Below are positions 1,184 through 22,418 of a stretch of DNA of 24,000 nt, one piece after another. Numbering within the stretch: the stretch's first letter is position 1; every line of letters begins with the position of its first letter. The DNA lies in the NCBI GenBank assembly GCA_902797225.1, contig CADBSD010000086.1:8498-32497 (forward strand). The letters are read 5' to 3'. The position numbers were made by a program, and so were the translations under genes. The notes under the pieces were generated by a model. It was not told where the DNA came from and made no database searches. It saw only the letters and a program-made list of their open reading frames with translations. Source of the stretch: an uncultured Ruminococcus sp. GTDB lineage: Bacteria > Bacillota > Clostridia > Oscillospirales > Acutalibacteraceae.

Positions 1184-4100
1184 TTACTTAATCCTAAGCT
1201 TAATAGTCTTTGTAATTGTCTTCTTTTTGTACTTAGAATTACCTTTAGCGGTGATCATTACTTTAATCTTGTAATTGCCTTTCTCAGCCTTTTTCCATTT
1301 TTTAAATGTAATAACACCTTTCGAGTTAATCTTTACGAGCTTTTTAATACTCTTAGGAATCTTTGTAAGCTTGTAAGTTACCTTACCCTTTGCTTGCTTA
1401 ACCGTAATCGCCTTAACCTTCTGAGCTTTTTTCTTAAGCTTTTTAGCCTTAACCGTCTTAGCTTTTACCGTAACCTTAATCGGGTTAGCTTTTTTAGTGG
1501 TTATAACAGGAGAGGTTGTCGGTTCAACTTGCTCAACAGTTGTCGGTTCAACAGGCTCCGCTGTTGTAGAGGGTTCTGTCGGTTCTACGGTCGTTGCTTT
1601 AGTAGGTTCAACTGTCGTTGTTTCCGTCGGCGCAGCCGTTGTAGGTTCTACCGTTGGAGCTTCTGTCGTTTCAACAGGTTCTGTTGTTGTCGGAGCGGTT
1701 GTCTCAACAGGTTTTGTAGTTTCGGGCTCTGTCAAAGCGGCAGTAGTTTCCTCTGTCGGAACTTCAGTCGCTAATTCAGGCACTTCCTGATTAGGTCCGT
1801 AAACTACCGCGTAAGGGTTATCATCTCCGCCGGTTGAGGACGTGTCAAAGTATATCCTTACGGTAGAACCGATTTTTTCGACATAAGCACTAGCTTTTGT
1901 CTGATTATCCGGGAAAAATTCAGTTCTTCCGTCTTTGCTGATTTTCACAATTTTAAAGTAAAGCTGAGCTGGACAACCGTACTTGATATTACAATCTTTA
2001 TAGTAGAACGAAGTACCTGCCACTTTATGCATTTTCATTTCAGGTGAATCTTTTATTGACTCATCTAAGTTCAGAAGGGAGTTGCCTATTACATAATATC
2101 CGGGTTCAAATGAATTTCCGCCAGAGCTAAGCTTGTTTTCTGAGGTCGAGTAAACTGTTTTAATCGAACCGCTATCTGAACCTTTTAATATACCGGTGAT
2201 TTTATCACCCGAATTATCAAAAATTCTATATTGATAATAATTTTCACTATTAACATCATCAATATCAGCAGTGAAATCACCATCTTCATTCTTAATCATT
2301 GAATAAACTCTTCTGTAAGAAAAGCTGTCATTAATCTCTATGCATTTAACATCATCAAGTATATCATTTACGGTTTCACCGGGCTTATAAACTACAGTGT
2401 ATGTAACAATTCGTTCTCCTAACAGAGAAGTAATAATTCTTACCGTTGAGCCTTTTTCTTTTACGGTGACATAATTGAATTTATAAAAGTTGCTCAGCGC
2501 TGAATAATCATAATAATCTTCACTTAACTTCTGAACATTTATTGTTTGATAATTGTATGTTCCCGCATCAACGTTTTTAAAATCCTTATAAAAAACTTTA
2601 TTATCATCAGTTGCTTTCATAGGAGTAGTGTTTGCGTCAATTTTTCCGCAAAGTCCTTCATCACCGATTGCATAATTACTTGTTTGTTTTAATCCACTGA
2701 TATGAATTAAGTTTACATCATCTCCATAAGCATTAATTTCACAGGTTTCAGGGTTTATTACAAATCGTATATCCCCATCCTTTTTAACAGTCAGAAACTC
2801 TCGGGCATTCTTATCATAATTCGGTATGAAATGCTTAGGATAAACTTTTATAATGCAGTTTCCCGCTTGTACATTCTTCGCTACACCCACGTAATTTCCG
2901 TCATCGGCTTTAGTGAATTCTATATCTCTAAACTTGCTATAATCACCAGAAGAAATTTCTATATCAATACCGAAATCAATCGTAGCTTCTCCCGAATATG
3001 ATATTGTTTTTTCATTTGAATCATACGTAACCGTTAATTCACCATTTCCACATAAGTATAACAAGCTTGAAACAAATCTGTCATAAGAATTATTATTCGC
3101 GACGAAAACAAAAACTTCATAACCTTTGTCTTTTTCCATAGAAAGCTCAGTCGAATCTATACTCTTGGAATAAATTCCGTCACCTTTACTTTCCATTGGG
3201 GTATAATTCAAAACTAAATCATAGTTATCGTAATCTTTTGTTATTTTTAAATAGAACTCAGCGTCAGGGTTATCAAGATCAATAAACTTAAAGCTGTTTT
3301 TAATAACATAATCAAAAACTTTAGTACCCCTATGACAGCATATTATAATACCTGTATCCTTATTTATCGGTATTTCTGATTCAAAATCAGTATTAATGAC
3401 GAGTTTCTTAAGGTCTTTAGCTTCGGCATTACTTCTTTTTCCGAAAGCGTAACCGTCTATCGAAGTCAATGTATCAGGGAATACATATTCTTCGTCTGTT
3501 CTTGATATAGGATAATAAACAAGTTTGGTTACATCCTTATTATAAATAATACCGTCATCTGTATAGTAATTTTCATTCTCTTTAGAAAGTGTTATGCTTT
3601 TTAAAGCGGGGAACGATCTATATATACTATAAATATCATTATCAAATATAAAGCTCTTTCCAAAATACACATTCTCGATTGAGGATTCTGACTCAGAATA
3701 CCATTCCAGCATAAACGGATCGCTTCTAAAGCTTGTTATTTTTTCATTATATTTAAGAGTTTTTAAAGATTTAACACTTGCAAAAGCGTATTTATAAATG
3801 CTCTCTACCGTTTCGGGAATTGAGTATTCTTCTGAAGCTTGGTTAGCGGGATATTTAATAAGTGTGGTTTTATCTTTGTTAAACAACACCCCGTTAACGG
3901 ATGTATATTTCTCGTTCTTTTCATCAACATTAATATATTCTAAGCTATTGCAATTATCTAAAACCTTAAACGCCTCGCAGTCTTCATCCTGACGATCATA
4001 ATCACCGAAATGTCTTCCGAGTTCAATACGTTTAAGGGAAGAAAGTGTTGATAAACTATCAAAATTTGTTAATTTATCGGGAACAGAAAGCTCGATCAAA

Positions 4101-7100
4101 TGAAAGCAGTTATAGAAAACATCCGAACCCATTTCCTCAATTGAATTTGGTAAATCAATGCTCTCAAGGGATGTGCAATTCTGGAAAGCACATCTTCCTA
4201 TAGATGTAAGCGCGGCGTTTATTTTAACACTTTTGATTTTATCGTTTGAGCTGAAAGCGTTTTCGGCAATAGAAGTCACTTTATAATCATTAACGGTATC
4301 AGGAATTACTACATCTTCAGCTTCACCTTTATAAGCTGTAACACTTGCGGTTTTATTCCTGTTAAAGCTATATTCCAAATCACCGACAACCTCAGTGAAA
4401 GGATATTCACCCGGCTCACGCTCACCTTTTTCGTTTATGTAGTTAATATCCATTCTTTTTAACGGAGTTACATAGTATGTTTCACCGGCAGTTACACTAT
4501 ATCTGTAGTCATAATAAAAGTATGTTTCGTAGTAATCTTCCACCAATACTCTTTCGCTGCTTTTACTGGAACTACCTTCAAGAAGCTTTCCTGTTCCGTC
4601 ATATAAATTCACTGTCGGAGTAAACTCATAATCATCATGTTCATTTTCGGAAAGAGTAATGTAAAAAGATACAGTTCCGGTTTTACGCGGGGTAAATTTC
4701 AGGAAACGCTGGCTATAATTATCCAGACGAATAGTTCCCTCACCATCTACTACCGTTTCATATGCAGAATCCGAATTCAGCTTTAGTGAAACTTTTGTTT
4801 CGTAGTCATCCGAATCCCAGCCATCCGTATAACCTTTGATTAAATATGTCTGTCCCGCTTTAACCCTACTCTCGTAGCTATATTGCGCCTGATCATAATA
4901 TTCAGTCGAAAAATTTGGCATTAGGTTTTTTTCTGAATCATAAACAGAACAGTATCTGCTTGAATTCTTTGGCGTTTCTATTCTGATAATTCCGTTATCA
5001 GTAGCGACATATTTTAAATACTCGCCGTAATCTCCGCCGACATACTTTGATTCTCCGTCTTTAATCTCGATATATCCGTCAAACTTGTCGATTTTTATCG
5101 AGAATTCAGCATTATCATCTTCTGAGGAAACAGCTAAAAGATACTCGGTGTTCTTTTTAAACATCTTATTAATCTCAAAATTATGTCCGTCGGATGAAAC
5201 GTCGCTTTTACAATCGAGAGAATAAGAAACCTGTCCGTTTTCTTCATATTTCGTAACAATCTTACAGGATGTTTTTGAATCTCCCGTAGATTTTATTGTG
5301 TAAACTTTATCCTGATTAGGCGTAAATTTATAGTATTTATATTCGCCTTTTGAATCAATACTTACATTTTTCTCTTCATCATATGAGATACTCTGAATAT
5401 CGGATGTCTTAATAATGCTTAAACTTACCGCTCTTTCCCCTTCTTCATCACTGTAAATATCAATAATGTATTTTCCCGCGGCAATTTTTGTAATCAGATT
5501 CGCGTCCGATTCGCTCCAATTATAATCAAGACGATTATAATCAGTGTCATACAACGCAAGATGGGTTCCCTCTTTTGTAGTCAAATCAATATTTAACAAG
5601 CCTTCTTCAGCGCTGTCGAATACAAATCGCTTTTTCTGAGATGTGGATGTAAGTTGAACTTTTTTTGTTTCATTATTTCCGATAGTTTCGATATCGTCCA
5701 GCGATATAAACTTTACGGAAAGTGAATAATTCTCCTTTTTACTGCTATAACAGCAAAGATAGAGTGATTCGTCTTTTTCGAGAGAATATATCTCCTTTTC
5801 GGAGTCATATTTATAATCGGAACCGAGAATATAATAACCGATATAATTATCATTAGGTACAGTACATTCTACAGTACATTTTTTCGGAGCGGTTAGCTTA
5901 AATACTTTTAGTTTACCGTACTCGCCGTTTATGGTCTTTGTCGTATCTGAGTTTATCGACTCGAATGAATCCCGCGGATAGAAATTAAGACCTATAGTAT
6001 ATTCGGCGTCATCTTCAATAGAACCTGAATAATCTTCCACGGTAAAATACAGGTAATATGTTTTTCCTTTTTCAACTTTAAAATCATCGCTAAAGTTATA
6101 ATATGTATTTTCTTCTTTTGTTTCGTCATAAACATCTAAAGTAGGTGAATTAATAGTTATACTCTTAAATTCGCTGTCATATACGTTATTTCCGAAATAA
6201 TCATCTAAGCCCTTTGAATAATAATTCGCGAATCCGTCGCTTTCGGCGGTAAATTTATAATAACAATCCTTTTTTAAATCTTCGGCGTTAATAGTTTTGG
6301 TTTCACCTGGATTAATCACAGGTAAATCGGAGAAAGCGTAATAATCGAAGTTCACTGTGAAAGCAGTTTTGGAATATCTGCTCTTCATCTCGAAATAATA
6401 AGTCTCACCTGATTTAAGAACCAAATCGAAATCCTTATCCCAACCTTCATCTTTTTCAATTTCTATTTCATTCATAGATGAATCGTACGCTTTATAAATA
6501 CAATAACCGGAATCAGATTTAAATCTAAGCAAACCATCCTTATCGGGAGTAAAGCGGAATGTAGTCTTGTCATTACTGTCAATAAAGAACAGCCTCTGTT
6601 TCTTTCCGGTAACAAGATCGGTATATTCGGAAGTGTTTTTTTCGGTTAATGAAACCGAATAATTAATTAAATAATCATACGGCATCTTGCATCCGAAATA
6701 GTACGTTTTTCCCGCCTCGGCTGAAACACAGTAACAACGATTATCAAGTTGTATCGATTTATTTGTAATATCATTTTTCTCGGAATCATAAATTGTAATT
6801 CCTAGAGAAAATTCAGAACTACAATAAAAGAATACATCACAGCTTTTCTCAGCTTCATATTTAAATAACTGAGTTACATCGAAATCATTGGAATTAAGAT
6901 TCTTGTTTTCATTCAAGTTAATATCAATCGGATCAGGGGTTTCCTTATTAAGGGTAACCGATACTTCGATATCTCTTTCATTGTAATTAATGCATTTTAT
7001 ATAATATACTTTTCCCTTTTCAGGCGTAAAAATCAGCGCTCGGAAACCATCCTCACCACAAACAGTATAATCTACGTCCGGATAAGATATTTGGTTCATT

Positions 7101-8233
7101 TCCGAATCCAGAAGCTGTAAACTCATTTGTGAATTAAACGCGATAAATTTAAGAGATTCCGACACATCCGCGGAATACTTTAATAGCTGAGATTCATCCT
7201 CATCAATATCAACATTAAGAGTGTCATTAAGTTTAATCTCTTTTTCGCCCTTTAATACTTCGTTTGAAACAATCTTCACAGAAGCGTTTTTGTTTTTTGT
7301 TGTTTTAAATCCAAGATAATAAGTTTTTCCTTCTTCTACCTTTTCCTTAATTTTTATGTCTTTTCCGGAATAAGAATCAGACGCTATAAAACGTTCGTTA
7401 TATATTCCGACATCCAAATTGTAATCTGACACCATATTAAAAGCAACACGACAATTTTTATCAGCTGTAAACCTAATAAATGTCAGCTCATTTGTTACGC
7501 CTTCAATATTTTTGGTATCTCCGATATTAATTGACTCAACATCAAGTCCGGTCAAAAAAGCTGTAAACTCTTTATCTCCGTCATTACTTTTACACTCAAA
7601 ATAATATACATTATTTTTTTCAGCGTTAAACTTAGCACAAGAGTATTTGTACTCGACCGAATCAGTAATTTCCGCTTTTTTGGAGTCTAAAACCTTAACG
7701 GAAATATCAGCATCCTGAATATTGAACTGAAGCTTTTCTGTTTTATCAGCCGTATACTTAAAAATCTGAGGTTCATACTCATCCGCCTCAGCGTTGATAT
7801 ATGTATTTTTTTTAATCTCTTTTTCAGAATTAACGAACTCGCTCAGGCTTATTTTAAAGCTGCTTTCTTCGCCGTAATAGTTCTTACAACCAAGATAATA
7901 GGTTGAACCTGATTTAACCCTGTAGCTCACTTTAAAATCACTTTTTCCGCCGCCATCGTCATTGCTGGCAAGTTCCTCAAAGTTTTCATCATAAAGATAA
8001 CCGTACGTATCCACATCAGAATTTGATGTAAAAACAATTTTTGTATCTTTATCAGCTACAAACTTAAAGTAGATAGTTTCATCTGAATCAGTAACAACAT
8101 TTTTTGTCTCGCCGATACTGATTGTTTCATACTCCTTTTCATCGGCGTCAGCAGTAAACGGCAAAGCGCTAAACATACTTAAAAGCATCAACAAAGCCAA
8201 TACAAAGCTGACTGATTTTTTTACTTTTTTCAT
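1184..8233 (-). CDS. Giant (2349 aa) secreted multi-domain surface protein: about 12 PPC-like beta-sandwich repeats, BspA-type LRR domain, beta-rich modules, Thr/Pro/Glu linker, Lys-rich Ig-like C-terminus
   Basis: Uninterrupted ORF with a GGAGG RBS (plus-strand tcctcc at about 8241-8246). Signal peptide MKKVKKSVSFVLALLMLLSMFSALPFTADA. About a dozen ~100-aa repeats each end in a G-[KSE]-T-Y-Y-[LF] motif (STYYLGC, KTYYLGF, KVYYIKC, KTYYFGC, ETYYFEM, KTYYLYF, ETYYVTP and others), resembling bacterial pre-peptidase C-terminal (PPC) domains. An LRR block (IPDTVNDYKVTSIAENAFSSNDKIKSVKINAALTSIGRCAFQNCTSLESIDLPNSIEEMG...) maps to roughly nt 3290-4400. No LPXTG motif and no C-terminal TM helix. Confidence 0.92.
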   Translation of the reverse strand: MKKVKKSVSFVLALLMLLSMFSALPFTADADEKEYETISIGETKNVVTDSDETIYFKFVADKDTKIVFTSNSDVDTYGYLYDENFEELASNDDGGGKSDFKVSYRVKSGSTYYLGCKNYYGEESSFKISLSEFVNSEKEIKKNTYINAEADEYEPQIFKYTADKTEKLQFNIQDADISVKVLDSKKAEITDSVEYKYSCAKFNAEKNNVYYFECKSNDGDKEFTAFLTGLDVESINIGDTKNIEGVTNELTFIRFTADKNCRVAFNMVSDYNLDVGIYNERFIASDSYSGKDIKIKEKVEEGKTYYLGFKTTKNKNASVKIVSNEVLKGEKEIKLNDTLNVDIDEDESQLLKYSADVSESLKFIAFNSQMSLQLLDSEMNQISYPDVDYTVCGEDGFRALIFTPEKGKVYYIKCINYNERDIEVSVTLNKETPDPIDINLNENKNLNSNDFDVTQLFKYEAEKSCDVFFYCSSEFSLGITIYDSEKNDITNKSIQLDNRCYCVSAEAGKTYYFGCKMPYDYLINYSVSLTEKNTSEYTDLVTGKKQRLFFIDSNDKTTFRFTPDKDGLLRFKSDSGYCIYKAYDSSMNEIEIEKDEGWDKDFDLVLKSGETYYFEMKSRYSKTAFTVNFDYYAFSDLPVINPGETKTINAEDLKKDCYYKFTAESDGFANYYSKGLDDYFGNNVYDSEFKSITINSPTLDVYDETKEENTYYNFSDDFKVEKGKTYYLYFTVEDYSGSIEDDAEYTIGLNFYPRDSFESINSDTTKTINGEYGKLKVFKLTAPKKCTVECTVPNDNYIGYYILGSDYKYDSEKEIYSLEKDESLYLCCYSSKKENYSLSVKFISLDDIETIGNNETKKVQLTSTSQKKRFVFDSAEEGLLNIDLTTKEGTHLALYDTDYNRLDYNWSESDANLITKIAAGKYIIDIYSDEEGERAVSLSIIKTSDIQSISYDEEKNVSIDSKGEYKYYKFTPNQDKVYTIKSTGDSKTSCKIVTKYEENGQVSYSLDCKSDVSSDGHNFEINKMFKKNTEYLLAVSSEDDNAEFSIKIDKFDGYIEIKDGESKYVGGDYGEYLKYVATDNGIIRIETPKNSSRYCSVYDSEKNLMPNFSTEYYDQAQYSYESRVKAGQTYLIKGYTDGWDSDDYETKVSLKLNSDSAYETVVDGEGTIRLDNYSQRFLKFTPRKTGTVSFYITLSENEHDDYEFTPTVNLYDGTGKLLEGSSSKSSERVLVEDYYETYFYYDYRYSVTAGETYYVTPLKRMDINYINEKGEREPGEYPFTEVVGDLEYSFNRNKTASVTAYKGEAEDVVIPDTVNDYKVTSIAENAFSSNDKIKSVKINAALTSIGRCAFQNCTSLESIDLPNSIEEMGSDVFYNCFHLIELSVPDKLTNFDSLSTLSSLKRIELGRHFGDYDRQDEDCEAFKVLDNCNSLEYINVDEKNEKYTSVNGVLFNKDKTTLIKYPANQASEEYSIPETVESIYKYAFASVKSLKTLKYNEKITSFRSDPFMLEWYSESESSIENVYFGKSFIFDNDIYSIYRSFPALKSITLSKENENYYTDDGIIYNKDVTKLVYYPISRTDEEYVFPDTLTSIDGYAFGKRSNAEAKDLKKLVINTDFESEIPINKDTGIIICCHRGTKVFDYVIKNSFKFIDLDNPDAEFYLKITKDYDNYDLVLNYTPMESKGDGIYSKSIDSTELSMEKDKGYEVFVFVANNNSYDRFVSSLLYLCGNGELTVTYDSNEKTISYSGEATIDFGIDIEISSGDYSKFRDIEFTKADDGNYVGVAKNVQAGNCIIKVYPKHFIPNYDKNAREFLTVKKDGDIRFVINPETCEINAYGDDVNLIHISGLKQTSNYAIGDEGLCGKIDANTTPMKATDDNKVFYKDFKNVDAGTYNYQTINVQKLSEDYYDYSALSNFYKFNYVTVKEKGSTVRIITSLLGERIVTYTVVYKPGETVNDILDDVKCIEINDSFSYRRVYSMIKNEDGDFTADIDDVNSENYYQYRIFDNSGDKITGILKGSDSGSIKTVYSTSENKLSSGGNSFEPGYYVIGNSLLNLDESIKDSPEMKMHKVAGTSFYYKDCNIKYGCPAQLYFKIVKISKDGRTEFFPDNQTKASAYVEKIGSTVRIYFDTSSTGGDDNPYAVVYGPNQEVPELATEVPTEETTAALTEPETTKPVETTAPTTTEPVETTEAPTVEPTTAAPTETTTVEPTKATTVEPTEPSTTAEPVEPTTVEQVEPTTSPVITTKKANPIKVTVKAKTVKAKKLKKKAQKVKAITVKQAKGKVTYKLTKIPKSIKKLVKINSKGVITFKKWKKAEKGNYKIKVMITAKGNSKYKKKTITKTIKLRIK
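1497..1790 (-). repeat. Degenerate Thr/Pro/Glu/Val-rich linker repeat (VEPTT-like) inside the giant CDS
   Basis: Protein stretch EVPTEETTAALTEPETTKPVETTAPTTTEPVETTEAPTVEPTTAAPTETTTVEPTKATTVEPTEPSTTAEPVEPTTVEQVEPTT. The DNA shows reiterated gttgtcggttcaac / ggttctac units. This periodicity generates the spurious plus-strand ORFs 1394-1774 and 1497-1790. Confidence 0.8.
4440..8143 (-). repeat. Tandem array of about 12 divergent PPC-like domain repeats (protein-level repeats; boundaries approximate)
   Basis: Recurring pattern I-x-x-G-[ED]-T-K ... F-K-[FY]-T-A-[DE]-K ... D-x-x-[GI]-x-[LI]-Y-D ... G-K-T-Y-Y, read by eye along aa 31 to about 1265. The copies are diverged at the DNA level. Confidence 0.55.
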
Positions 8234-8274
8234 AAATACATCCTCCTTTTTCAGCTAATTGCTGTATACACTAT

Positions 8275-8283
8275 ATTGTATCA
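8275..8283 (-). promoter_or_regulatory. Candidate extended -10 promoter (TGaTACAAT) of the giant surface-protein gene
   Basis: The minus strand reads TGATACAAT (plus attgtatca, 8275-8283). It lies 24 nt downstream of the proximal 12-mer of repeat site C and about 40 nt upstream of the ATG at 8233. No good -35 is present, as expected for an extended -10 or activator-dependent promoter. Confidence 0.4.
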
Positions 8284-8304
8284 TATATTTTATATAAAAA
8301 ATTT

Positions 8305-8336
8305 GTTGTTTATTACATTATTATGTTAATTATTAC
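8305..8336 (-). promoter_or_regulatory. Repeat site C: tandem direct-repeat operator (LytTR-type candidate)
   Basis: The minus strand reads GTAATAATTAAC-ATAATAAT-GTAATAAACAAC. These are two 12-mers 20 bp apart (8325-8336 and 8305-8316). The site is near-identical in layout to site B and site A. Confidence 0.55.
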
Positions 8337-8351
8337 ATCTTAACGCTGTTT

Positions 8352-8392
8352 TTTGCAAAAGAAAACCGACCGAGTGTTAGCTCGATCGGTTT
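8352..8392 (-). terminator. Rho-independent terminator, minus orientation, with no upstream CDS
   Basis: Minus-strand RNA: AAACCGAUCGAG-cuaaca-CUCGGUCGGUUU followed by UCUUUUG. The stem is 12 bp with one G-U pair. In plus orientation the same position is a C-A mismatch and the tail is not U-rich. Confidence 0.55.
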
Positions 8393-8447
8393 CCTTAACT
8401 GAAGTTTTGAAATATAGAAGATTATTCTGAAAACATCCTCATACTTC
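8356..8447 (-). ncRNA. Candidate ~90-nt small RNA (predicted promoter plus strong intrinsic terminator, no ORF)
   Basis: An extended -10 TGtTACAAT lies on the minus strand (plus 8454-8462), with the TSS predicted near 8447. The unit ends at the 12-bp-stem terminator at 8363-8392 plus a U tract. Only a 6-codon ORF without RBS lies inside. This rests purely on sequence logic. Confidence 0.3.
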
Positions 8448-8465
8448 GTATTTATTGTAACATAA

Positions 8466-8518
8466 TAAAAAGAAAAAATAAACGCTATTTTTATGTTACT
8501 TTTTACAATATAGCGTTT
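8466..8518 (-). terminator. Second minus-orientation terminator-like hairpin (weaker, large loop)
   Basis: AAACGCTAT (8480-8488) pairs with ATAGCGTTT (8510-8518), giving a 9-bp stem and a 21-nt loop. On the minus strand it is followed by AUUUUUUCUUUUU (plus 8466-8479). It overlaps degenerate repeat site D, so it may be a by-product of that site. Confidence 0.3.
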
Positions 8519-8526
8519 GTTATTAC
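8495..8526 (-). promoter_or_regulatory. Repeat site D: degenerate copy of the tandem 12-mer element, back-to-back with site A
   Basis: The minus strand reads GTAATAACAAAC-gctatatt-GTAAAAAGTAAC, again with 20-bp spacing. The first 12-mer is a good match. The spacer and second 12-mer are poorer. The junction with site A forms the perfect palindrome ATTACGTAAT (8522-8531). Confidence 0.3.
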
Positions 8527-8535
8527 GTAATGGTC

Positions 8536-8567
8536 GTAACAAAAGACATCGCAATGTAACAACATGC
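8536..8567 (+). promoter_or_regulatory. Repeat site A: tandem direct-repeat operator (LytTR-type candidate) upstream of the exporter operon
   Basis: The plus strand reads GTAACAAAAGAC-ATCGCAAT-GTAACAACATGC (12-mers at 8536-8547 and 8556-8567, 20 bp apart). It aligns with site B, tcGTAATAAAAAAC-ATAACAAT-GTAATAAAAAAC, including the flanking tc and the AT..CAAT spacer. Confidence 0.55.
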
Positions 8568-8619: not shown

Positions 8620-8632
8620 TGTATAATATAAT
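8620..8632 (+). promoter_or_regulatory. Candidate -10 region (TGTATAATATAAT) of the plus-strand exporter operon
   Basis: Two overlapping TATAAT hexamers at 8622-8627 and 8627-8632, preceded by TG. No convincing -35 is present (aattat or ttaaac). It lies 54 nt downstream of site A and about 40-70 nt upstream of the first start codons. Confidence 0.3.
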
Positions 8633-8670: not shown

Positions 8671-9528
8671 GTGAATGAACTGACAGGTTTTATTATGAAC
8701 GGTATTTACAGAAAAAAAGCTATAAAAAACGCGTATTCGACAGAACAGCTTGACAAAGCTATTGTAATATCTTCCCCTCTTTCGTGGCTTGGGATAATCG
8801 GCGTTTTGGTGTTTATTACCGCGGTTATCACCTGGTCTGTTTTTACAACAATTCCGACGGTAGTTAACACAAAAGGAGTATACACCGAAAAGGCGGATTT
8901 ACTTGCAGTTAATTCAGATTGTTCGGGAATTATACAGAAATACTTTATTCATTCGGGCAGCATTGTCAAAAAAGGCGATGTTATCGCTGAAGTTAAAACA
9001 AACACGGGGGAACTAAGAAAGCTAAAATCAAGTTACGACGGTACAATCAGTAGTGTTTTACTAAATGATAATGATGTTGTATATTCTTCGGACGAGCTTA
9101 TCAGAATAACTCCCGAGGACATCCCCGAAAACTGCGTCGTATGTTATCTGCCTTTATCGCAAGCCGAATATATTAAAGAAGGAATGAGCGTTACGCTTTA
9201 CCCAAACCTTAATTATTCCGTTAACGACGCTCATCTGAACGGTGAAATCAAGTATATTGCAAAGTATCCCGCCGACGAGAAAAACACATCTTTAATTCTA
9301 GGCAAAAACAGCGGTCTAAAAAGAATGCTTCTGAAAGATGAGGCGGTTATTGAAGCCGTATGTAAGATAAATAACAAACACGATAAAGATAAATATATTA
9401 CCAATGACAATAAAAGAATTATACTAAAAAACAAATCCGTTCTCTCTTTAAGAATCGTTACCGAAAACACTCCGCCTATTAACAAGCTTTTTAGTTTTAG
9501 TGAAAACCGTGGTGGCGACAATGAGTAA
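8671..9528 (+). CDS. HlyD-family membrane-fusion/secretion adaptor of the NHLM (NHLP/Nif11) bacteriocin export system (TIGR03794-like)
   Basis: The N-terminus MNGIYRKKAIKNAYSTEQLDKAIVISSPLSWLGIIGVLVFITAVITWSVF matches the family pattern: F-R-K-x-A-l-x ... S-x-E-q-L-D, then a single TM helix. A lipoyl-like hairpin is present (GIIQKYFIHSGSIVKKGDVIAEV). The ORF opens at GTG 8671, but ATG 8695 (MNGIYRKK) is the more likely start. It is short (277-285 aa) for a HlyD protein and has little coiled coil. Confidence 0.85.
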   Translation: MNELTGFIMNGIYRKKAIKNAYSTEQLDKAIVISSPLSWLGIIGVLVFITAVITWSVFTTIPTVVNTKGVYTEKADLLAVNSDCSGIIQKYFIHSGSIVKKGDVIAEVKTNTGELRKLKSSYDGTISSVLLNDNDVVYSSDELIRITPEDIPENCVVCYLPLSQAEYIKEGMSVTLYPNLNYSVNDAHLNGEIKYIAKYPADEKNTSLILGKNSGLKRMLLKDEAVIEAVCKINNKHDKDKYITNDNKRIILKNKSVLSLRIVTENTPPINKLFSFSENRGGDNE

Positions 9529-11659
9529 CTACGTTAAGACGCCTGTCGTTTTTCAGAGCGAAGCTTGCGAGTGCGGAGCGGCTGCGCTGACTTGTGTGCT
9601 GTACTATTTTGGCAGATACACGCCTTTGGAAAAGGTACGCGAGGATATCGGAATATCAAGAGACGGATGCAGCGCTGGAAGTATAATGAGAACGGCGAAA
9701 AGCTACAACTTACACTGTCACGGATACCGAAAAGAAACAGAAGATTTAAAAACAATTAAAACACCCTGTATTCTGCATTGGAATCTCAACCATTTTGTGG
9801 TTTTTGAGGGCTTTAAAGGGAAATTCGCCTACATAAACGATCCCGCGCTCGGGAATCGAAAGCTTAGCTTTGAAGAACTTGACAACTCGTTCACGGGAAT
9901 AGTGCTGACCTTTTCCCCTAACGCGGAGTTTAAAAAAAGCAAAAAGCCTCATACATTCTTTAAATTCGCTAAAGAACAGCTTAATACAAATTCAGAAACT
10001 GTTGCAAAGCTGTTTATTATAAACGCGTACCTGGTATTCACGGGGTTAACCCTTCCATTGTTATCAAGAGTATTTATCGACGATGTTCTTGTAAGCAAGA
10101 GCTATGAAGTATTTTCTTGGATAGCGTTTATTATCATCTCCTGCATTATTTTGCAGTTTATTCTTAACATTTACCAAACGACTTTACTTGCAAAATTCAG
10201 AAAAAAGCTTGTACTTTTAACGAGCAAAAAATTTCTTACGCGCTTGTTTGATTTACCGCTTAATTTTTTTGAATACAGATTCGCGGGAGATTTAGCTCAG
10301 AGAGTAAAGAATATTCAAGCCGCCTGTTCTTTTGTTTCAGACGAAACGGCGAGTATATTTTTTGATATAATTATCGCGGTTTTTTATTTTATTGTAATGA
10401 TTATATACAGCCCTATTCTCAGCTTAGCGGCTCTTTTATGCGCGGCTGTAAATTTTATCATTATTAAAACATCGTCAAATTCGCTTTCGGAAAAATCAAT
10501 CAGATTACAAAAAGATACGGGAGTTTTATTAGGCGTATTGTATTCGGGAATTAATTCAATAAAAAATGTAAAAGCGTCGGGGATTGAGCCTGATCTAACC
10601 AAAAAAATCCTCGGATATAACGCTGAACTTCCTCAATCACGCCAAAAATTAGCTCGTACGCAAAACATAATTGACACTTTAACAGAATTCAACAAAAACC
10701 TTTTTGACGTTATCGTTTTAACCGCGGGAGGAATAATTGTAATAAACGGTAATATGAGTATAGGAACACTCGCTGCGTTCGGTATACTTTTAACCCTGTT
10801 TAATCAGCCGATAAGCAGACTTATTTCTGTTTTACAAAAAGTTCAAACGGTAAAATCAGATATTAACCGTACAGACGATATAATGAATTGTAAATCAACC
10901 GGCGATATTGATTTCCCTATAAAAAACGACTTTTTAAAAACAATCAACGGTAACGTCGAACTAAAAAACGTATCATTCGGCTATAGAAAAAACTCAAATG
11001 CTGTGGTATCTGATATAAGCATTGATATAGAATGCGGTTCAAGCGTCGCCATAGTAGGAAAATCGGGCTCAGGAAAATCCACAATCATTAATCTTATAAG
11101 CGGTCTTTATACGCCTTGGAACGGCGAGATTAAATATGACAACATAAACATTAAAGCGTTAAATAAAGAAACTAAGAGCGTTAATGTTTCGGTAGTAAGT
11201 CAGAGCGCTTCCCTATTTCCGTATACAATAAAAGAAAACATTAAAATGTTCAACGAAAGTATAAGCGAGGTGGATATGGTAAGGGCGGCGAAAGACGCGT
11301 GTATTCACGACGAAATACTTAATAAACGCGGGGGATACAATTACCCGCTAAGCGAAAACGGGTCAAACCTCTCGGGAGGTCAGCGCCAAAGACTAATGAT
11401 AGCACGCGCGCTCGCTTCTAATCCCGCTGTCCTTATTATGGACGAAGCGACAAGCTCAATTGACGCTGATACGGAAAAAGAAATACTAAAGAATATAAAA
11501 AGACGCGGTTGTACATTTATATCAGCGGCGCACAGACTAAGCGCTATTAAAAACTGCGATAGAATCATAGTAATCTCCAACGGTAAGATTGTTGGAGAAG
11601 GAACTCACAGCGAGCTTTACAAATCCAACGAGTATTATCAAAAACTTATCAAAAACTAA
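9500..11659 (+). CDS. C39-peptidase-domain ABC exporter (double-glycine leader-cleaving peptidase/permease/ATPase; TIGR03796-like)
   Basis: C39 motifs: oxyanion Gln and catalytic Cys in VVFQSEACECGAAALTCVL, His in HWNLNHFVVFEG, Asp in INDPA. Six-TM ABC exporter core. Walker A GKSGSGKST, signature LSGGQRQR, Walker B LIMDEATSSID, H-loop SAAHRLS. The probable true start is ATG 9521 (MSNYVKTPVVFQ), overlapping the upstream stop by 8 nt. The ORF-track start at 9500 is a GTG. Confidence 0.95.
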   Translation: MKTVVATMSNYVKTPVVFQSEACECGAAALTCVLYYFGRYTPLEKVREDIGISRDGCSAGSIMRTAKSYNLHCHGYRKETEDLKTIKTPCILHWNLNHFVVFEGFKGKFAYINDPALGNRKLSFEELDNSFTGIVLTFSPNAEFKKSKKPHTFFKFAKEQLNTNSETVAKLFIINAYLVFTGLTLPLLSRVFIDDVLVSKSYEVFSWIAFIIISCIILQFILNIYQTTLLAKFRKKLVLLTSKKFLTRLFDLPLNFFEYRFAGDLAQRVKNIQAACSFVSDETASIFFDIIIAVFYFIVMIIYSPILSLAALLCAAVNFIIIKTSSNSLSEKSIRLQKDTGVLLGVLYSGINSIKNVKASGIEPDLTKKILGYNAELPQSRQKLARTQNIIDTLTEFNKNLFDVIVLTAGGIIVINGNMSIGTLAAFGILLTLFNQPISRLISVLQKVQTVKSDINRTDDIMNCKSTGDIDFPIKNDFLKTINGNVELKNVSFGYRKNSNAVVSDISIDIECGSSVAIVGKSGSGKSTIINLISGLYTPWNGEIKYDNINIKALNKETKSVNVSVVSQSASLFPYTIKENIKMFNESISEVDMVRAAKDACIHDEILNKRGGYNYPLSENGSNLSGGQRQRLMIARALASNPAVLIMDEATSSIDADTEKEILKNIKRRGCTFISAAHRLSAIKNCDRIIVISNGKIVGEGTHSELYKSNEYYQKLIKN

Positions 11660-11670
11660 GAGCGGTATTT

Positions 11671-14241
11671 ATGGACAATAAAACTATACTTCTCGAAAGC
11701 GGGAAGAATTATATTAGTACAAATGAATATGACGCTTTCAGAGTTAAAAGCGGTACAGTTCTCGTTTATATCGTTCCTGTTAAAAACGGTAAATCAGGGA
11801 GGAAAAAGCTTATTTACGAGGCAATTGAGGGTGATGTTATCCCCTCTTATGTTTACAAAGACCTTGAGTATAATAGTTTCAGGTTTTGTTTTTCCGCTTT
11901 AGACTCAGCGCAATTAGATGTTATGAGCAACTGCTCAACCAATATATTACGGGAAAAATTCGCAAAAAAAATCGGCTTGGATATTTCGAGCGCCTCACAG
12001 TTTTACGAGGCTCTTGCCGAAAGCTACAGGATGTCCTCCGTTTTGGAGATGGGAGCGGTTAAACGCAAAGAGAATAATAATCAAAGCGTTAAAAAAGGAA
12101 TTATTTCTTCAATAATAAACGCATTTAAAAAGAACCGCAAATACTATACGATACCCAACACCGAAAATGAGCTATATAATGCCGCGGCTTTAATATGCAA
12201 ACAAGAAAACATACCTATAGCAAGTTATGAAGCGGTTAAGTCCTATACGGATAAAAACGTTAGAATTGACGATATAGCAAACAGCTCGGGTTTTGTATAC
12301 AGAGAAATATCGCTCAATAAAAACTGGTACAAAGAGAATATGGGTTCTTTTATCGCCTTTAATAAATCAGGAAAGCCTATAGCCTGTATTTCTAAATCCG
12401 CTAATTCTCACGTCTTTTATAACAAAGAGAATAATAAATTTCAAAAAGCGGATAAAAGCTTCGCCGAAACAATAGAAACAAAAGCATATATACTGTACCG
12501 TCCTTTACCGCCCGAAAGGCTTCAAAAAAGCGATTTAATAAAATTCTGTATAAAAAGCTTAAAGCAATCGGAATTAATCAGACTAATACTTTTATCTATG
12601 ATAATAGCGGTAATCGGACTTTCTCTTCCTGTTTTTTCACAGATTATTTACGATGATCTCATACCGCTTGAAATGAAAAACAATTTACTTAAAATTGGAT
12701 TTACTCTCGCGGTGTTCGCGATAGCAAGCGCGGCGCTGTCGCTTGTTAAAAGGTTTTCGCTTTTCACAACGACTTACAAAATCGCGCTTGATTTTCAAAA
12801 CGCTGTATTTCATAGGCTTATTAATCTGCCTCAAAGTTTTTTTGATAAAAATAATACGACAAAATGTGCTGTCGGAGCTTTTAACTCGGGAGCTTTAGCC
12901 GAAACAATATCGGGCGAAATAATATACTCAGTTATCTGTATTCTTTTTGCCGTTATTTATTTTATTTCGATGATAACCGTCTCCCCTGTTTTAAGCTTTA
13001 CCGCTGTTCCCGCTGTTATTGTTTACATACTGCTGTATTCAATTATTTCCAAAGCTTTTATAAATGAAGAAAAACAAATAGAAAAATACGAAACTCAAAA
13101 CAACTCAATAATATATCAATTTATTCTTTCAATTTCGGAAATAAAAAATTCCGAAGCAAAAGAAAAAGCTATTCTTAAATATTTAAAATCTTATATTACG
13201 GAAGCTAATCACAGAGAAAAAGCAAGCCGGATAAAAGGCGTATCCATAGCTGTTACACTTGCGTTCAACGGGTTGATTACTCTTTGTTTTTACACGGTAT
13301 GTACAGTGTTAAGGATTGATATAAGCGCGGGCTCTTTTATATCTTCTACGACGTTATTCGGCGTATTCTCGGCTTATGTCACACAGATTATAAACAGCAT
13401 AGTAAATATAAAGGCTCAAACACCTTATATGCAGCGCACAAAAATAATTCTGGACGAACTCCCCGAAAATGAAAACGATAAAATAATCCCGCATAATTTA
13501 AGCGGAGATATTTATATTAATAATCTTAGCTTCCGCTATTACGGTGAAAATGACAAAACGCTTAAGAACATAAGTATAAATATTAAAAGCGGTGAATATC
13601 TCGGCATAGCGGGAGCTTCGGGAAGCGGTAAATCTACTCTTATCAATCTTTTGCTCGGCTTTTACAGCGACTATAACGGCGAAATACGTTATGACGGTTA
13701 TAATATTAAAGAGTTGAACAAACAAAAACTTAGAAAAAATATGGGCATTGTTCTTCAAAACGATACACTTTTACCTGACACGATTCTCCGTAATATATCC
13801 GTGAATTCTCCCGAAGCTTCAATAAACGATGTGAATAAAATCACGGATGAACTGGGATTATCGGAAGATATTAAAAAAATGCCTATGGGATTATACACAT
13901 TACTTAACGAAAACTCTACCACAATTTCCGAAGGGCAAAAGCAAAGAATATTACTGTGCAAAGCATTATTATCTAATCCCAAAATAATAATACTTGATGA
14001 ATCCACATCTTCACTCGATAACGAATCTCAACAGCTTATTCTGAATGCCCTTAAAAAAAGAACAGCTACAAAAATTGTAGTCGCGCAAAGACTAAATACA
14101 CTTATTGACTGCGACCGAATAATCGTTATAAAAGACGGCGAAATAACGGAAACAGGACGCTATAAGGATTTAATTAATAATAAATCAGGCGAGTTTTATA
14201 AACTGGCACAAAATCAGATTGACGATATTGATGAAAGGTAA
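11671..14241 (+). CDS. Second NHLM-system ABC exporter permease/ATPase lacking the peptidase domain (TIGR03797-like), with ~300-aa N-terminal extension
   Basis: 856 aa. TM exporter core from about aa 300. Walker A GASGSGKST and Walker B IILDESTSSLD are canonical. The signature is ISEGQKQR (not LSGGQ) and the H-loop reads VVAQRLN (Gln where His is expected). The N-terminal part (FRVKSGTVLVYIVPVKNGKSGRKKLIYEAIEGDVIP) looks like a cNMP-binding-type beta-barrel by eye. An 11-nt gap separates it from the upstream gene. Confidence 0.92.
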   Translation: MDNKTILLESGKNYISTNEYDAFRVKSGTVLVYIVPVKNGKSGRKKLIYEAIEGDVIPSYVYKDLEYNSFRFCFSALDSAQLDVMSNCSTNILREKFAKKIGLDISSASQFYEALAESYRMSSVLEMGAVKRKENNNQSVKKGIISSIINAFKKNRKYYTIPNTENELYNAAALICKQENIPIASYEAVKSYTDKNVRIDDIANSSGFVYREISLNKNWYKENMGSFIAFNKSGKPIACISKSANSHVFYNKENNKFQKADKSFAETIETKAYILYRPLPPERLQKSDLIKFCIKSLKQSELIRLILLSMIIAVIGLSLPVFSQIIYDDLIPLEMKNNLLKIGFTLAVFAIASAALSLVKRFSLFTTTYKIALDFQNAVFHRLINLPQSFFDKNNTTKCAVGAFNSGALAETISGEIIYSVICILFAVIYFISMITVSPVLSFTAVPAVIVYILLYSIISKAFINEEKQIEKYETQNNSIIYQFILSISEIKNSEAKEKAILKYLKSYITEANHREKASRIKGVSIAVTLAFNGLITLCFYTVCTVLRIDISAGSFISSTTLFGVFSAYVTQIINSIVNIKAQTPYMQRTKIILDELPENENDKIIPHNLSGDIYINNLSFRYYGENDKTLKNISINIKSGEYLGIAGASGSGKSTLINLLLGFYSDYNGEIRYDGYNIKELNKQKLRKNMGIVLQNDTLLPDTILRNISVNSPEASINDVNKITDELGLSEDIKKMPMGLYTLLNENSTTISEGQKQRILLCKALLSNPKIIILDESTSSLDNESQQLILNALKKRTATKIVVAQRLNTLIDCDRIIVIKDGEITETGRYKDLINNKSGEFYKLAQNQIDDIDER

Positions 14242-14244
14242 GGA

Positions 14245-14562
14245 TTGTTTATGAGAAGTGATAATAAGCTTTTAGAATTAACGGGTAAGGTATTGTCGAA
14301 TAACGACAGCGCAGAGAAACTGACTAAAGTAAAATCTATATCGGATATTAAAAAAATATTCGAAAATAACGAAATCAAAATAACGTCCGAAGAAGTTGAG
14401 CGAATCGGCATTCTTCTGAATAACGATGAGCTAAACGAAGAAATGCTTGATACTGTAAACGGCGGCGGCGCTGTGGAGATGATTATTCTCGGCGGAGTTT
14501 TAGTCAGCTTAGCGGCAGTCGGCGCGTGCAGAGCGGCTTATTTGAGCATAAAAAAGGATTAA
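14245..14562 (+). CDS. Nif11-like leader, double-glycine precursor peptide (TIGR03798-like) with hydrophobic 31-aa core
   Basis: The likely start is ATG 14251 (AGGA RBS at 14241-14244, 6-nt spacer). The track start at 14245 is a TTG. The 72-aa leader MRSDNKLLELTGKVLSNNDSAEKLTKVKSISDIKKIFENNEIKITSEEVERIGILLNNDELNEEMLDTVNGG follows the Nif11 leader pattern, ending in (E/D)-L-x-E-E-x-L-x-x-V-x-G-G. The predicted core (nt 14467-14559) is GAVEMIILGGVLVSLAAVGACRAAYLSIKKD. The gene sits directly after its cognate three-gene exporter. Confidence 0.85.
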   Translation: MFMRSDNKLLELTGKVLSNNDSAEKLTKVKSISDIKKIFENNEIKITSEEVERIGILLNNDELNEEMLDTVNGGGAVEMIILGGVLVSLAAVGACRAAYLSIKKD

Positions 14563-14571
14563 TGTAAACTT

Positions 14572-14934
14572 ATGGAAAGAAATTACGAAAAAAACTCTCT
14601 TATAATCAGAGATAGCAACGGAGATTTTAAGCTAAGCATTTCAACAAAATACAATAATGATTCATCGCTGATTAAAGTATCGGGCGAGTTAAGTTCTGAT
14701 GTTTCTCACGATTTTGAGGATGAGCTTATGGCGGTTGTCACCGTACGCGATAATATAGATTTGGATTTATCTGATGTCACAAAAATATCGTCAGTCGCTT
14801 TAAGAGCGCTGTTATCAGCTCAACAGATTATTGACGAGAGAGATAACGCGTCGCTTAGAATACTAAATATGAGAAAAGAAGTTTTAGGCTTTTTTGAGGA
14901 AAAGGGCTTTGACGATCTTTTTATTATTGTCTGA
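14572..14934 (+). CDS. STAS-domain protein (SpoIIAA/RsbV-like anti-sigma-factor-antagonist fold)
   Basis: 120 aa. IKVSGELSSDVSHDFEDELMAVV...IDLDLSDVTKISSVALRALLSAQQII...LRILNMRKEVLGFFEEKGFDDLFII matches the STAS layout. Ser73 (nt 14788-14790) aligns by eye with the phosphorylated Ser of the SpoIIAA D-S-S-G motif. No RsbW/SpoIIAB-type kinase or sigma factor is nearby. Confidence 0.8.
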   Translation: MERNYEKNSLIIRDSNGDFKLSISTKYNNDSSLIKVSGELSSDVSHDFEDELMAVVTVRDNIDLDLSDVTKISSVALRALLSAQQIIDERDNASLRILNMRKEVLGFFEEKGFDDLFIIV

Positions 14935-14961
14935 CAAAAGATTTAACAGGAAAATATAAAA

Positions 14962-15846
14962 ATGAACCAATACAATCCATATAAAATATATGAAGGAAAT
15001 GAAAACTACATATTCTCAAGCTACTCACACAAGGACGAAGACAGAGTCATCAGGATATTAGAACAGCTCGCGAAACACGGATGCCGATTATGGTATGACA
15101 ACGGTATTAACGCGGGAAGCAACTGGCCCGAGGTTATCGCTGGACATCTGAATAATTGTAAGGTGTTTTTATCTTTTATTTCTAAAAACGCGGTTAATTC
15201 TCATAACTGCAGACGGGAAATAAACTTTGCCGTACTTAAGAAAAAAACTATTATAACCGTCTTTTTGGAAGATACGGTTTTATCCCCCGGTATGGAAATG
15301 CAGCTTTCAACTATGCAGTTTATAGAAAAGTACAAGCTCTCGGACGAGGAGTTTTACGAAAAACTTTTAGATAACAAAAAGATAAAAGAATGTATCGGAA
15401 AGCCTGATAAGAATATAAAAATTCCTAAAGGTATAAATCACGAGCCGCAAAAAAGCTATGATAACCTATGGCTTAGTAAAGAATACACAGGCGAAAAAGA
15501 TTTTTATTTTATAAAAAATACTGTTTTCTATTTAATACGAAAAAATACAGGCGAAAAGATAAGAATAAATCCCGAGGGATTTAACATAGGCAGAAAATCG
15601 GAATTTTGTGATTATACAATCAACGGCAACAAAACCATAAGCCGACTTCACGCCACAATGAAAATCAGAAATGAAAAATGTATTATTTATGACCACGATT
15701 CGCTTAACGGCGTATATGTAAACGGCGAGGCTATAACGCCGAATACCGAAACAGAGCTTATCGCTCACGATGAAATCAGGCTGGGAAGCGAAAAATTTAT
15801 ACTTGTTTCAGATGAAGAAGAAAGCATAGAAAACACGGAGGAATAG
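14962..15846 (+). CDS. TIR-domain / FHA-domain fusion protein
   Basis: N-terminal TIR_2-type domain (aa ~15-104): YIFSSYSHKDEDRVIRILEQLAKHGCRLWYDNGINAGSNWPEVIAGHLNNCKVFLSFISKNAVNSHNCRREINFAV. The glutamate at the usual catalytic position is E86, nt 15217-15219. C-terminal FHA domain (aa ~188-282): G210-R211, S227-R228-x-H230, N249-G250 (FNIGRKSEFCDYTINGNKTISRLHATM...DSLNGVYVNGEAI...IRLGSEKFILV). No TM helix or signal peptide. AGGAAA RBS. Confidence 0.88.
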   Translation: MNQYNPYKIYEGNENYIFSSYSHKDEDRVIRILEQLAKHGCRLWYDNGINAGSNWPEVIAGHLNNCKVFLSFISKNAVNSHNCRREINFAVLKKKTIITVFLEDTVLSPGMEMQLSTMQFIEKYKLSDEEFYEKLLDNKKIKECIGKPDKNIKIPKGINHEPQKSYDNLWLSKEYTGEKDFYFIKNTVFYLIRKNTGEKIRINPEGFNIGRKSEFCDYTINGNKTISRLHATMKIRNEKCIIYDHDSLNGVYVNGEAITPNTETELIAHDEIRLGSEKFILVSDEEESIENTEE

Positions 15847-15847
15847 A

Positions 15848-17782: not shown

Positions 17783-17796
17783 AAAAGGAGTTTTAA

Positions 17797-22388: not shown

Positions 22389-22418
22389 ATTATATTATAA
22401 CCTCTATTAATATTTCAA
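22389..22418 (-). promoter_or_regulatory. Sigma-A-type promoter of the response-regulator/kinase operon (TTGAAA-18-TATAAT)
   Basis: The minus strand has -35 TTGAAA (plus 22413-22418), an 18-nt spacer and -10 TATAAT (plus 22389-22394). The predicted TSS is about 20 nt upstream of the ATG at 22364. The -35 lies 11 bp from repeat site B. Confidence 0.55.

Follow-up and report, generated by a model that had tools for sequence, protein, structure and literature searches.

Known LytTR systems and the present locus

LytTR response regulators bind imperfect direct repeats of 8-13 bp that lie about 12 bp apart (PMC4064291). In the VirR boxes of Clostridium perfringens the repeats are 7-8 nt apart; these boxes sit in a stretch of about 50 bp just upstream of the -35 element, are phase-dependent and are described by a 34-nt matrix (PMC2838878), and the VirR regulon comprises secreted proteins together with small regulatory RNA genes (VR-RNA) (PMC2838878, PMC4877802). 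Here we analysed a stretch of 24,000 nucleotides from an uncultured Ruminococcus sp. (contig CADBSD010000086.1; hereafter the window), which carries a tandemly repeated element at four sites: A, C and D between a peptide-exporter operon and a divergent giant surface-protein gene, and B in front of a gene for a LytTR response regulator. We consider it likely that this element is the operator of the locally encoded regulator and that it belongs to a peptide-sensing circuit with four responding promoters, a reading drawn from the DNA sequence and its conservation among relatives.

In its architecture the locus comes closest to VirS/VirR of C. perfringens, with which it shares a core of about 34-50 bp, a fixed position and helical phase, and a host within the Clostridia. 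Unlike the VirR box, however, the element has the unrelated sequence ATGTAAYAAnnAAC, occurs in three spacing classes, including a reversed and a distal one, and is also carried by the regulator gene itself. While VirR targets toxins, the genes behind the boxes described here encode leucine-rich-repeat (LRR)/dockerin surface proteins and a peptide exporter.

The agr P2-P3/RNAIII region of Staphylococcus aureus resembles the locus in having back-to-back direct-repeat pairs in one divergent region, one of which feeds a signalling operon (positive feedback) while the other drives an RNA, here a predicted one, and in its suboptimal core promoters (PMC4227749). The LytTR domain encoded in the window is also detectably related to that of AgrA. 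In contrast, AgrA repeats measure 9 bp with a 12-13-bp spacer and a proximal repeat centred near -60, the signal of AgrA is a thiolactone peptide produced by AgrB, which is absent here, and the RNA of our locus is predicted to be about 90 nt long, has no Rfam match and is lost in some strains.

The ComE, BlpR and PlnC/D systems of streptococci and lactobacilli likewise bring together a double-glycine precursor, a C39 exporter plus accessory protein, and a polytopic kinase plus LytTR regulator, and they have tandem repeats 5' of both the exporter and the regulator operons (PMC4005675, PMC4064291). The exporter of our locus is instead of the NHLP/NHLM type with two ATP-binding cassette (ABC) proteins, the precursor has a leader of about 70 amino acids (aa), the operon has additional genes for STAS, TIR-FHA and PASTA-kinase proteins, the repeats recur every 20 and not every 21 bp, and the regulon appears to consist mainly of large surface proteins and not of bacteriocins or competence genes. 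Direct-repeat LytTR boxes with autoregulation are textbook elements; what is unusual here is the conserved reversal, the distal class and the dispensable, predicted small RNA. Our literature search found no paper on this particular system.

The repeated element and its conservation

The element was read at the following positions of the window. Scores refer to a 34-nt position weight matrix (PWM) built from 19 sites in the window and in related loci, the latter referred to by L numbers.

8336 to 8305, minus strand (34-nt span 8305..8338): site C, GTAATAATTAAC-ATAATAAT-GTAATAAACAAC, with the 14-mer units atGTAATAATTAAC and atGTAATAAACAAC at a 20-bp period; forward toward the giant surface-protein gene; 43.8 bits
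8536 to 8567, plus strand (34-nt span 8534..8567): site A, GTAACAAAAGAC-ATCGCAAT-GTAACAACATGC; forward toward the exporter operon; 30.4 bits
22430 to 22461, plus strand: site B, GTAATAAAAAAC-ATAACAAT-GTAATAAAAAAC, a perfect 12-mer pair; 43.0 bits
8526 to 8495, minus strand: site D, GTAATAACAAAC-GCTATATT-GTAAAAAGTAAC, degenerate with one core mismatch; 32.9 bits
8345..8356, minus strand: possible weak third unit 5' of C, GCAAAAAACAGC; shifted PWM match of 24.9 bits

Sequences and positions of A to D had been given in a preliminary description of this DNA and were all correct when re-read, as was the remark that D abuts A back to back (the gap is 9 bp). Three places in the window fit the pattern GTAAYAA-N13-GTAAYAA exactly (8336-8310 on the minus strand, 8536-8562 and 22430-22456 on the plus strand) against an expectation of 0.00, the mean of 100 dinucleotide-preserving shuffles of which 0/100 contained a match, and with up to two mismatches there are eight matches against 1.55 expected, among them D (8526-8500, minus strand, one mismatch) and the shifted C; these shuffle figures are optimistic because the pattern was defined only after the sites had been seen. 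A pattern-free repeat search of the window also picked up the 12-mer pair of B at 20-bp spacing, and the weight matrix reached at least 14 bits within the 24 kb only at A, B, C, D and the shifted C. The lone heptamer GTAAYAA is common, with 31 copies on both strands of the window, and the distinctive feature is therefore the pairing at exactly 20 bp. Overall G+C content is 36%, and that of the intergenic DNA is about 29%.

Several positions that were not used in choosing the sites proved to be near-invariant (T at -1 in 15/19, C at 12 in 18/19, T at 20 in 19/19 and C at 32 in 18/19), and positions 13-17 of the spacer carry at most 0.6 bit in the 19-site table and are essentially free. As read from these aligned sites, the unit is the 14-mer ATGTAAYAAnnAAC followed by 6 variable bp, present twice at a 20-bp period. 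Tandem repeats about two helical turns apart, as in LytTR operators, are found at A to D and at 15 further sites, in each case as 12/14-mers at exactly 20 bp. Such a centre-to-centre spacing would place the half-sites on one face of the helix, for two LytTR domains in tandem. The preliminary description had contrasted this period with the 21-22 bp of AgrA, ComE and PlnC/D; it is no novelty among LytTR systems, the repeats of the VirR box being 7-8 nt apart (PMC2838878).

The exporter control region is present in five lineages, in which the HlyD-like protein is 53-85% identical and the C39 transporter down to 55%. Box position and orientation are kept in all five, and the spacers between units and the remaining intergenic DNA have diverged. 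Orthologues of A were found in L016, L017, L019 and L146, those of C in L016, L017, L054/L019 and L146, and those of D in L017, L019 and L146, where the order of D, hairpin and C is also kept; L016 has only C and A and no D. The intergenic DNA of L019 is too diverged to be aligned with that of the window by blastn, and still the boxes are there. Site B recurs 5' of the regulator gene in L011/L012 (regulator 82% identical) and L013 (66%) in the same reversed orientation, with nearly identical 12-mers and differing spacers (ATAACAAT, AATACGTT, TTTAGAAT). In L014, L021 and L025 (regulator 52-54% identical) the position of B is occupied by ATGTAAT pairs, again reversed and at a 20-bp period. The box accordingly changes with its regulator: where the latter is at least 65% identical the box reads ATGTAAYAAnnAAC, and at 52-54% only the ATGTAAT core and the 20-bp period are left.

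The homologues compared form graded series of identity (regulator 82, 66, 52-54 and 47%; HlyD-like protein 85, 75 and 53%; C39 exporter 89, 79 and 55%). NCBI labels the related proteins as Ruminococcus sp. or Acutalibacteraceae, and window proteins are matched exactly in metagenome contigs, for example ERZ28613037 scaffold_923, where a dockerin-bearing alpha-amylase is encoded nearby. Specificity was assessed over the 24-kb window and about 150 kb of related loci: in these loci exact or one-mismatch pairs occur only in exporter-upstream regions, and in the first set of related loci pairs occur only just 5' of the regulator gene. On these comparisons the boxes are a phylogenetic footprint in related uncultured gut Ruminococcus-like bacteria. 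The two broader claims of the preliminary description, namely a conserved 32-bp element shared by several control regions and its role as a LytTR-type cis element marking the regulon of the local regulator, are thereby confirmed and strongly supported, respectively: the exact pairs far exceed expectation and recur at the same places in diverged lineages, and conserved place and orientation, variable spacers and fixed distances to the -10 element argue for the regulatory role.

Forward sites and a predicted small RNA

The distances between box and -10 element fall into three fixed geometries: forward at 24 nt, forward at 53-54 nt, and reversed at about 28-30 nt. In the first of these, to which C and D belong, exactly 24 nt lie between the second unit's 3' AAC and an extended -10 (TGnTAxxAT) at 9/9 sites (window C, L016 C, L017 C and D, L019 D, L146 D, L054, L092 and L098), and none of the nine has a -35 element. 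With the -10 taken as -12 to -7, the cores fall near -47 (proximal) and near -67 (distal). The elements of these two promoters and of the unit downstream of D are as follows.

8275..8283, minus strand: extended -10 of the C promoter, TGaTACAAT, 24 nt past the end of C; no recognisable -35
8454..8462, minus strand: extended -10 of the D promoter, TGtTACAAT, 35 nt past D in the window versus 24 nt in three other lineages
8357..8447, minus strand: predicted non-coding transcript of about 90 nt, its ends deduced from the -10 and the terminator; fold z-score -5.7
8402..8411, minus strand: 10-nt box UUCAAAACUU (= TTCAAAACTT) just 5' of the terminator, invariant in the window, L017, L019 and L146
8359..8396, minus strand: intrinsic terminator hairpin, with a U-tract at 8365-8357

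Past D, the minus strand reads TGtTACAAT, then about 60 nt that contain no conserved open reading frame (ORF), the 10-nt box, and the hairpin with its U-tract; C and the giant gene lie beyond these. At the level of structure, and as judged from sequence, this is a putative stand-alone RNA unit consisting of box, -10, short non-coding region and terminator. The conserved blocks in an alignment of four lineages are the extended -10, the 10-nt box and the hairpin, and the terminator covaries, one of its pairs being AU, UA or CG and a second UG or CG. The preliminary description had directed A toward the exporter operon and both C and D toward the giant gene. Conserved orientation and fixed -10 spacing bear this out for A and C, but D would serve a short transcript and not the giant gene, because it has an extended -10 of its own and a conserved terminator before C. 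We read the D unit as a small box-dependent RNA gene, in which the 10-nt box is a candidate single-stranded seed or protein site.

A search of Rfam returned no family at the gathering score for the D transcript, only chance-level matches at E of 1 or below, and thus no homology to a curated RNA, be it RNAIII, VR-RNA or any other family. The complement of the invariant box has five matches in the window against 7.8 expected, which is no enrichment. Duplex energies of the D RNA with start regions pointed to no consistent target; the conserved box took no part in an apparent match with the peptide gene. Small ORFs within the transcript (MRMFSE, MH and MFLLNFKTSTV) were rejected as they are not conserved.

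Among the alternatives, the one that survives best, though we hold it to be the less probable reading of D, is that the unit contains no small-RNA gene and is either a copy, now in decay, of the C promoter and leader or a hairpin insulating the divergent operons from antisense read-through. D, its -10 and the first 20 nt of the transcript are indeed paralogous to C, its -10 and the leader with the ribosome-binding region of the giant gene, as a diverged direct duplicate in blocks of 71-92% identity (8317-8354 vs 8487-8524, 8235-8252 vs 8430-8447, and 8274-8285 vs 8453-8464). The alternative would also fit the degenerate D and the 11 extra nt in the window, the lack of any target found for the RNA, and the absence of the unit from L016 and the strain L150, apparently via recombination of boxes. 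Mere decay is, on the other hand, difficult to reconcile with a unit that is kept in four lineages, three of them with a perfect box and extended -10, that contains an invariant 10-nt block and a covarying terminator, and that survives in L146 although the C-driven gene is gone. We therefore retain the small RNA gene as the preferred interpretation of D.

Some structural details of this region were observed in addition. An inverted repeat (8474-8491 / 8507-8524, core AAACGCTAT / ATAGCGTTT, 9 bp) brackets the second unit of D and coincides with the 11 extra nt, which add one helical turn to the distance of the D -10 seen in the other lineages. In the widespread lineage L146 (8606-8681, plus strand; 8813-8844, minus strand) an intact C box faces an opposite-strand tRNA-Met gene. 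In L150 (about 1640-1760), a strain with an identical C39 protein, and in L016 (5792-5843), the second unit of D, the small RNA and the terminator are lost and the first unit of D is joined to both units of C. The result is a clear array of three tandem 20-bp units, of which the window shows a weak form; the loss is consistent with recombination between the near-identical 12-mers of the second D unit and the first C unit (GTAATAATTAAC).

Distal and reversed sites

The -10 elements assigned to A and B are the following.

8622..8627, plus strand: TATAAT of the exporter operon, 54 nt past A
22394..22399, minus strand: TATAAT of the regulator-kinase operon, at a distance of exactly 30 nt from B

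In the A class, a perfect TATAAT follows the box after 53-54 nt in 5/5 lineages, with the cores near -77 and -97; the interval between box and -10 exceeds that of the C/D-type sites by about 30 bp in all five. A block GAATwATT is conserved at the -35 position between A and TATAAT; as a degenerate third half-site it aligns poorly to the consensus, and its position fits neither class. Alternative -10 elements at 24 nt past A (ATTGCA, ATAAGG, ATACGG, ATACAG, TACAGA) were rejected, since the conserved final T is missing.

In the B class the G1 end of the box faces the regulator gene, and exactly 30 nt further on ggtTATAAT is found in the window, L011 and L013 (3/3). The distance to the -10 is about 28-30 nt in L014, L021 and L025, where the regulator gene is co-linear behind an LRR gene. 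A second reversed pair is present in L021, L025 and L026 5' of the gene that follows the kinase, which in L025 encodes an LRR_5 protein. Despite the inversion, the proximal core comes to lie at roughly -44 to -47 in both the forward (C/D) and the reversed class. The preliminary description had noted the opposite orientation of B as a caveat; the reversal is real and present in every lineage examined, but being conserved at about 28-30 nt from the -10 it is no anomaly. The -35 hexamer TTGAAA from which B had been measured is not conserved, and the -10 at 22399-22394 is the conserved element instead. A divergent promoter forward of B (TAGTAA, TAATAT, ATTTAA) was considered and rejected, as it lacks a TG, is not conserved and has no downstream gene.

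Taken as LytTR operators, the sites show a fixed position and phase near promoters with a weak or no -35, with predicted transcription start sites and with the A class further upstream than usual. They do not show one common orientation, the B-type sites being reversed in all lineages; that uniform orientation should define the family is an assumption of ours and not a cited rule.

We regard it as unlikely, though worth weighing, that the LytTR regulator binds these sites and represses or roadblocks some of the promoters, with the reversed B and the distal A as the clearest candidates. For AgrA, repression of bsaA through a site that lies downstream of the promoter has been reported (PMC4227749). 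At our locus repression might be suspected from the reversal of B in every lineage, from a promoter-like TTGTTA-16-TATAAT on the minus strand that overlaps B, from a strong upstream TTGACA-17-TATAGT (22673-22645) that could read through B into the regulator gene, and from the distance between A and its perfect TATAAT. The conserved TATAAT 30 nt from B, however, has no -35, which suggests activator dependence, and the reversed sites of L021, L025 and L026 precede, at the same spacing, LRR genes, a class that is driven by forward sites elsewhere. Moreover, peptide-sensing LytTR systems are generally auto-activating. We thus continue with activation as the more probable role of all four sites.

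Regulator, operon and target genes

The genes flanking the boxes in the window are listed below.

1184..8233, minus strand: 2349-aa secreted LRR_5 (BspA-type) surface protein with a signal-peptide-like N-terminus; predicted target of C
8695..20235, plus strand: nine-gene operon with HlyD-like adaptor, C39-peptidase ABC exporter, second ABC protein and 103-aa double-glycine precursor, and further with STAS, TIR-FHA, PASTA Ser/Thr kinase and an 812-aa LRR protein
21657-22364, minus strand: LytTR response regulator (Pfam LytTR and Response_reg)
20280-21587, minus strand: GHKL histidine kinase (HATPase_c_5, about six hydrophobic segments, H-box HDINN)

The Pfam domains at 21657-22364 confirm that a LytTR regulator is encoded in the window. 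It is paired with a polytopic kinase of the AgrC/ComD type, and the regulator and the HATPase_c_5 kinase adjoin the cluster in all lineages. A box lies 5' of the regulator gene in six lineages, in keeping with a cognate regulator and with autoregulation. The LytTR domain of the regulator is similar to the AgrA structure 3bs1 (E 2.8e-7); its NCBIfam matches are far below the cut-off, and it has no close similarity to any named family.

Just 5' of B and the regulator gene, where pheromone genes of the comC type sit, a mini-ORF was observed (22485-22622, minus strand; MALTTFKEAKLRNITNG, stop, ELYKIPVITRKKTDLKDMMIKNKLKRY, stop), for which TTGACA-17-TATAGT at 22673-22645 (minus strand) is promoter-like. 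Its N-terminus is leader-like with the hydrophobic spacing of double-glycine leaders, an in-frame TGA stands at the position of the second glycine (GGT TGA), and the tail is cationic and 27 residues long. The mini-ORF is not present in L011 or L013 and may be a dead or recoded pheromone gene.

The exporter proteins contain Peptidase_C39, ABC_membrane and ABC_tran domains, and an exporter is thus found together with its accessory protein. Their best NCBIfam models are NHLM_micro_ABC1, ABC2 and HlyD, which belong to the NHLP/NHLM set for bacteriocin export, and none of these matches reaches the equivalog cut-off. The 103-aa protein, found in seven lineages, has a long leader (about 70 aa) ending in ...EEMLDTVxGG, followed by a hydrophobic core of about 30 aa (AVGACRAAYL). 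With this motif and the conserved core it looks like a double-glycine precursor and hence like a substrate of the C39 exporter; it also matches Pfam Bacteriocin_IIc weakly, below the cut-off. The gene order of the operon is kept in L011/L016, L014, L021, L025 and L146. We further observed that the operon joins an NHLP-type exporter and precursor to STAS, TIR-FHA, PASTA kinase and LRR genes, which is an unusual combination; in L014 there is FHA only and no TIR.

In a scan of the genome collection with the 32-nt pattern, the matches listed were mostly chance or unrelated, and three loci of JAHKZS01 were informative. Among the matches listed, the JAHKZS01 contigs have a perfect box, 24 nt, an extended -10 and then a secreted-protein gene, which encodes an 1143-aa protein in L054, a 392-aa beta-helix-like protein in L092 and an LRR_5 protein in L098. 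Since L019 overlaps L054 at 100% identity, JAHKZS01 represents the lineage of L018-L020. In L016 the C box precedes a gene for a 401-aa LRR protein with dockerin-like repeats. From these genes the regulon looks like a set of surface and secreted proteins, the signalling/export operon and the regulator. Metagenome scans with an alignment of the HlyD-like protein and with a DNA pattern of box plus extended -10 gave no matches.

The consensus sequence of AgrA is ACAGTTAAG and that of VirR is CCAGTT..CAC; the box differs from these and from every other published LytTR consensus that we are aware of, so its assignment to a LytTR protein rests on architecture and neighbourhood. This dissimilarity could point to genuine operators that are bound by a different protein, for instance a global or lineage-specific regulator, with the LytTR gene merely as one of its targets, as could the JAHKZS01 boxes on regulator-free contigs and an HTH_3 protein that is encoded just 5' of B in L011. 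We judge this to be improbable, and more so than repression by the LytTR regulator. The HTH_3 gene is absent from the other lineages, whereas each lineage has the regulator-kinase pair alongside the boxed operon and the box drifts in step with the divergence of the regulator. In addition, two-turn tandem direct repeats beside activator-dependent promoters are the hallmark of LytTR proteins (PMC4064291, PMC2838878). That the repeats are functionless, arising by chance in AT-rich intergenic DNA or as remnants of local duplication, would be in line with the base composition of the window, the many single GTAAYAA copies and the duplicated C and D regions, but it is effectively refuted by the comparative data, as no pairs are expected from the shuffles, the sites are conserved over five lineages with variable spacers and fixed -10 distances, and B lies 14 kb from the other sites, outside the duplication.

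Proposed circuit

With the local LytTR regulator as the probable binder, we posit the following circuit. The six-helix GHKL kinase would sense a secreted peptide, for which the best candidate is the C-terminal part (about 30 residues) of the 103-aa precursor, a part that the C39-peptidase ABC system encoded in one operon with it would cleave off and export. The kinase would then phosphorylate the regulator, which in this form would fill the boxes as a tandem pair and bring RNA polymerase to promoters without a usable -35. The promoter at C would drive the 2349-aa LRR surface protein, and that at D, being of the same design, the terminator-ended small RNA of about 90 nt. Activation at A would yield more exporter, peptide and kinase from their operon and so close a positive feedback loop, and the reversed box at B would provide autoregulation of the regulator-kinase operon.

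A number of observations speak against this proposal. The box does not resemble a LytTR consensus, and the boxes of JAHKZS01 are linked to a regulator by genome only, since their contigs contain none. The additional 30 bp between A and its -10 are a further difficulty, and another factor could act at the GAATwATT block found there. The reversed orientation of B could mean repression instead of activation, and we found no citable precedent for it among tandem-binding LytTR proteins. Finally, D is degenerate in the window and its -10 displaced by 11 nt.

To our knowledge, almost nothing is known about gene regulation in uncultured gut bacteria of the Ruminococcus/Acutalibacteraceae type. What emerges is a concrete, testable operator consensus, two copies of ATGTAAYAAnnAAC at a 20-bp period, together with three promoter geometries and a first, predicted regulon map for a two-component system in such bacteria. 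The predicted targets suggest that surface display is under the control of a peptide signal. The conserved reversed sites are moreover a naturally occurring case on which to examine if LytTR regulators that bind in tandem are able to activate from either orientation.

More tentatively, the locus might represent an undescribed type of peptide quorum sensing in polymer degraders, in which a box that works in either orientation at a fixed position switches LRR/dockerin surface proteins, an NHLP-type exporter operon with PASTA kinase and TIR-FHA genes, and an RNAIII-like small RNA. We regard this wider proposal as possible and considerably less secure than the operator assignment. If it were true, the cell-surface architecture and adhesion of keystone starch and fibre degraders of the gut would be controlled by cell density. 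The dockerin-bearing alpha-amylase is encoded about 2 kb to the right of the window (L001, 6463-8169), which suggests that the host is a relative of the amylosome-type Ruminococcus.

Similar loci and repeats elsewhere

A regulator-kinase pair with 47% identity occurs in an NCBI Acutalibacteraceae metagenome-assembled genome (L023/L024, 9900-9935 and flanks) amid three serine recombinase genes and without the exporter cluster. Its 5' region has TGTAAAA twice in forward orientation, at a 21-bp period. Given the three recombinase neighbours, this pair is probably located on a mobile element.

Many three-unit arrays (catGTAAYAAACGGCcatttgac three times, then aaaa) were observed in Flavobacteriaceae, which have the GTAAYAA core and the 20-bp period in common with our element (L035, L041, L046, L049, L057, L066, L072 with three copies, L073, L077, L089, L091, L102, L121, L126, L130, L135, L138 and L145). 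They may be the operator of another regulator or a repeat element. Repeats of a 20-bp period are also found in Geobacter and other deltaproteobacteria (L048, L064, L080, L090, L127 and L139), where they read GTAATAAATTAC-ctatatcg-GTAATAAATTAC-ttatatacggaaac.

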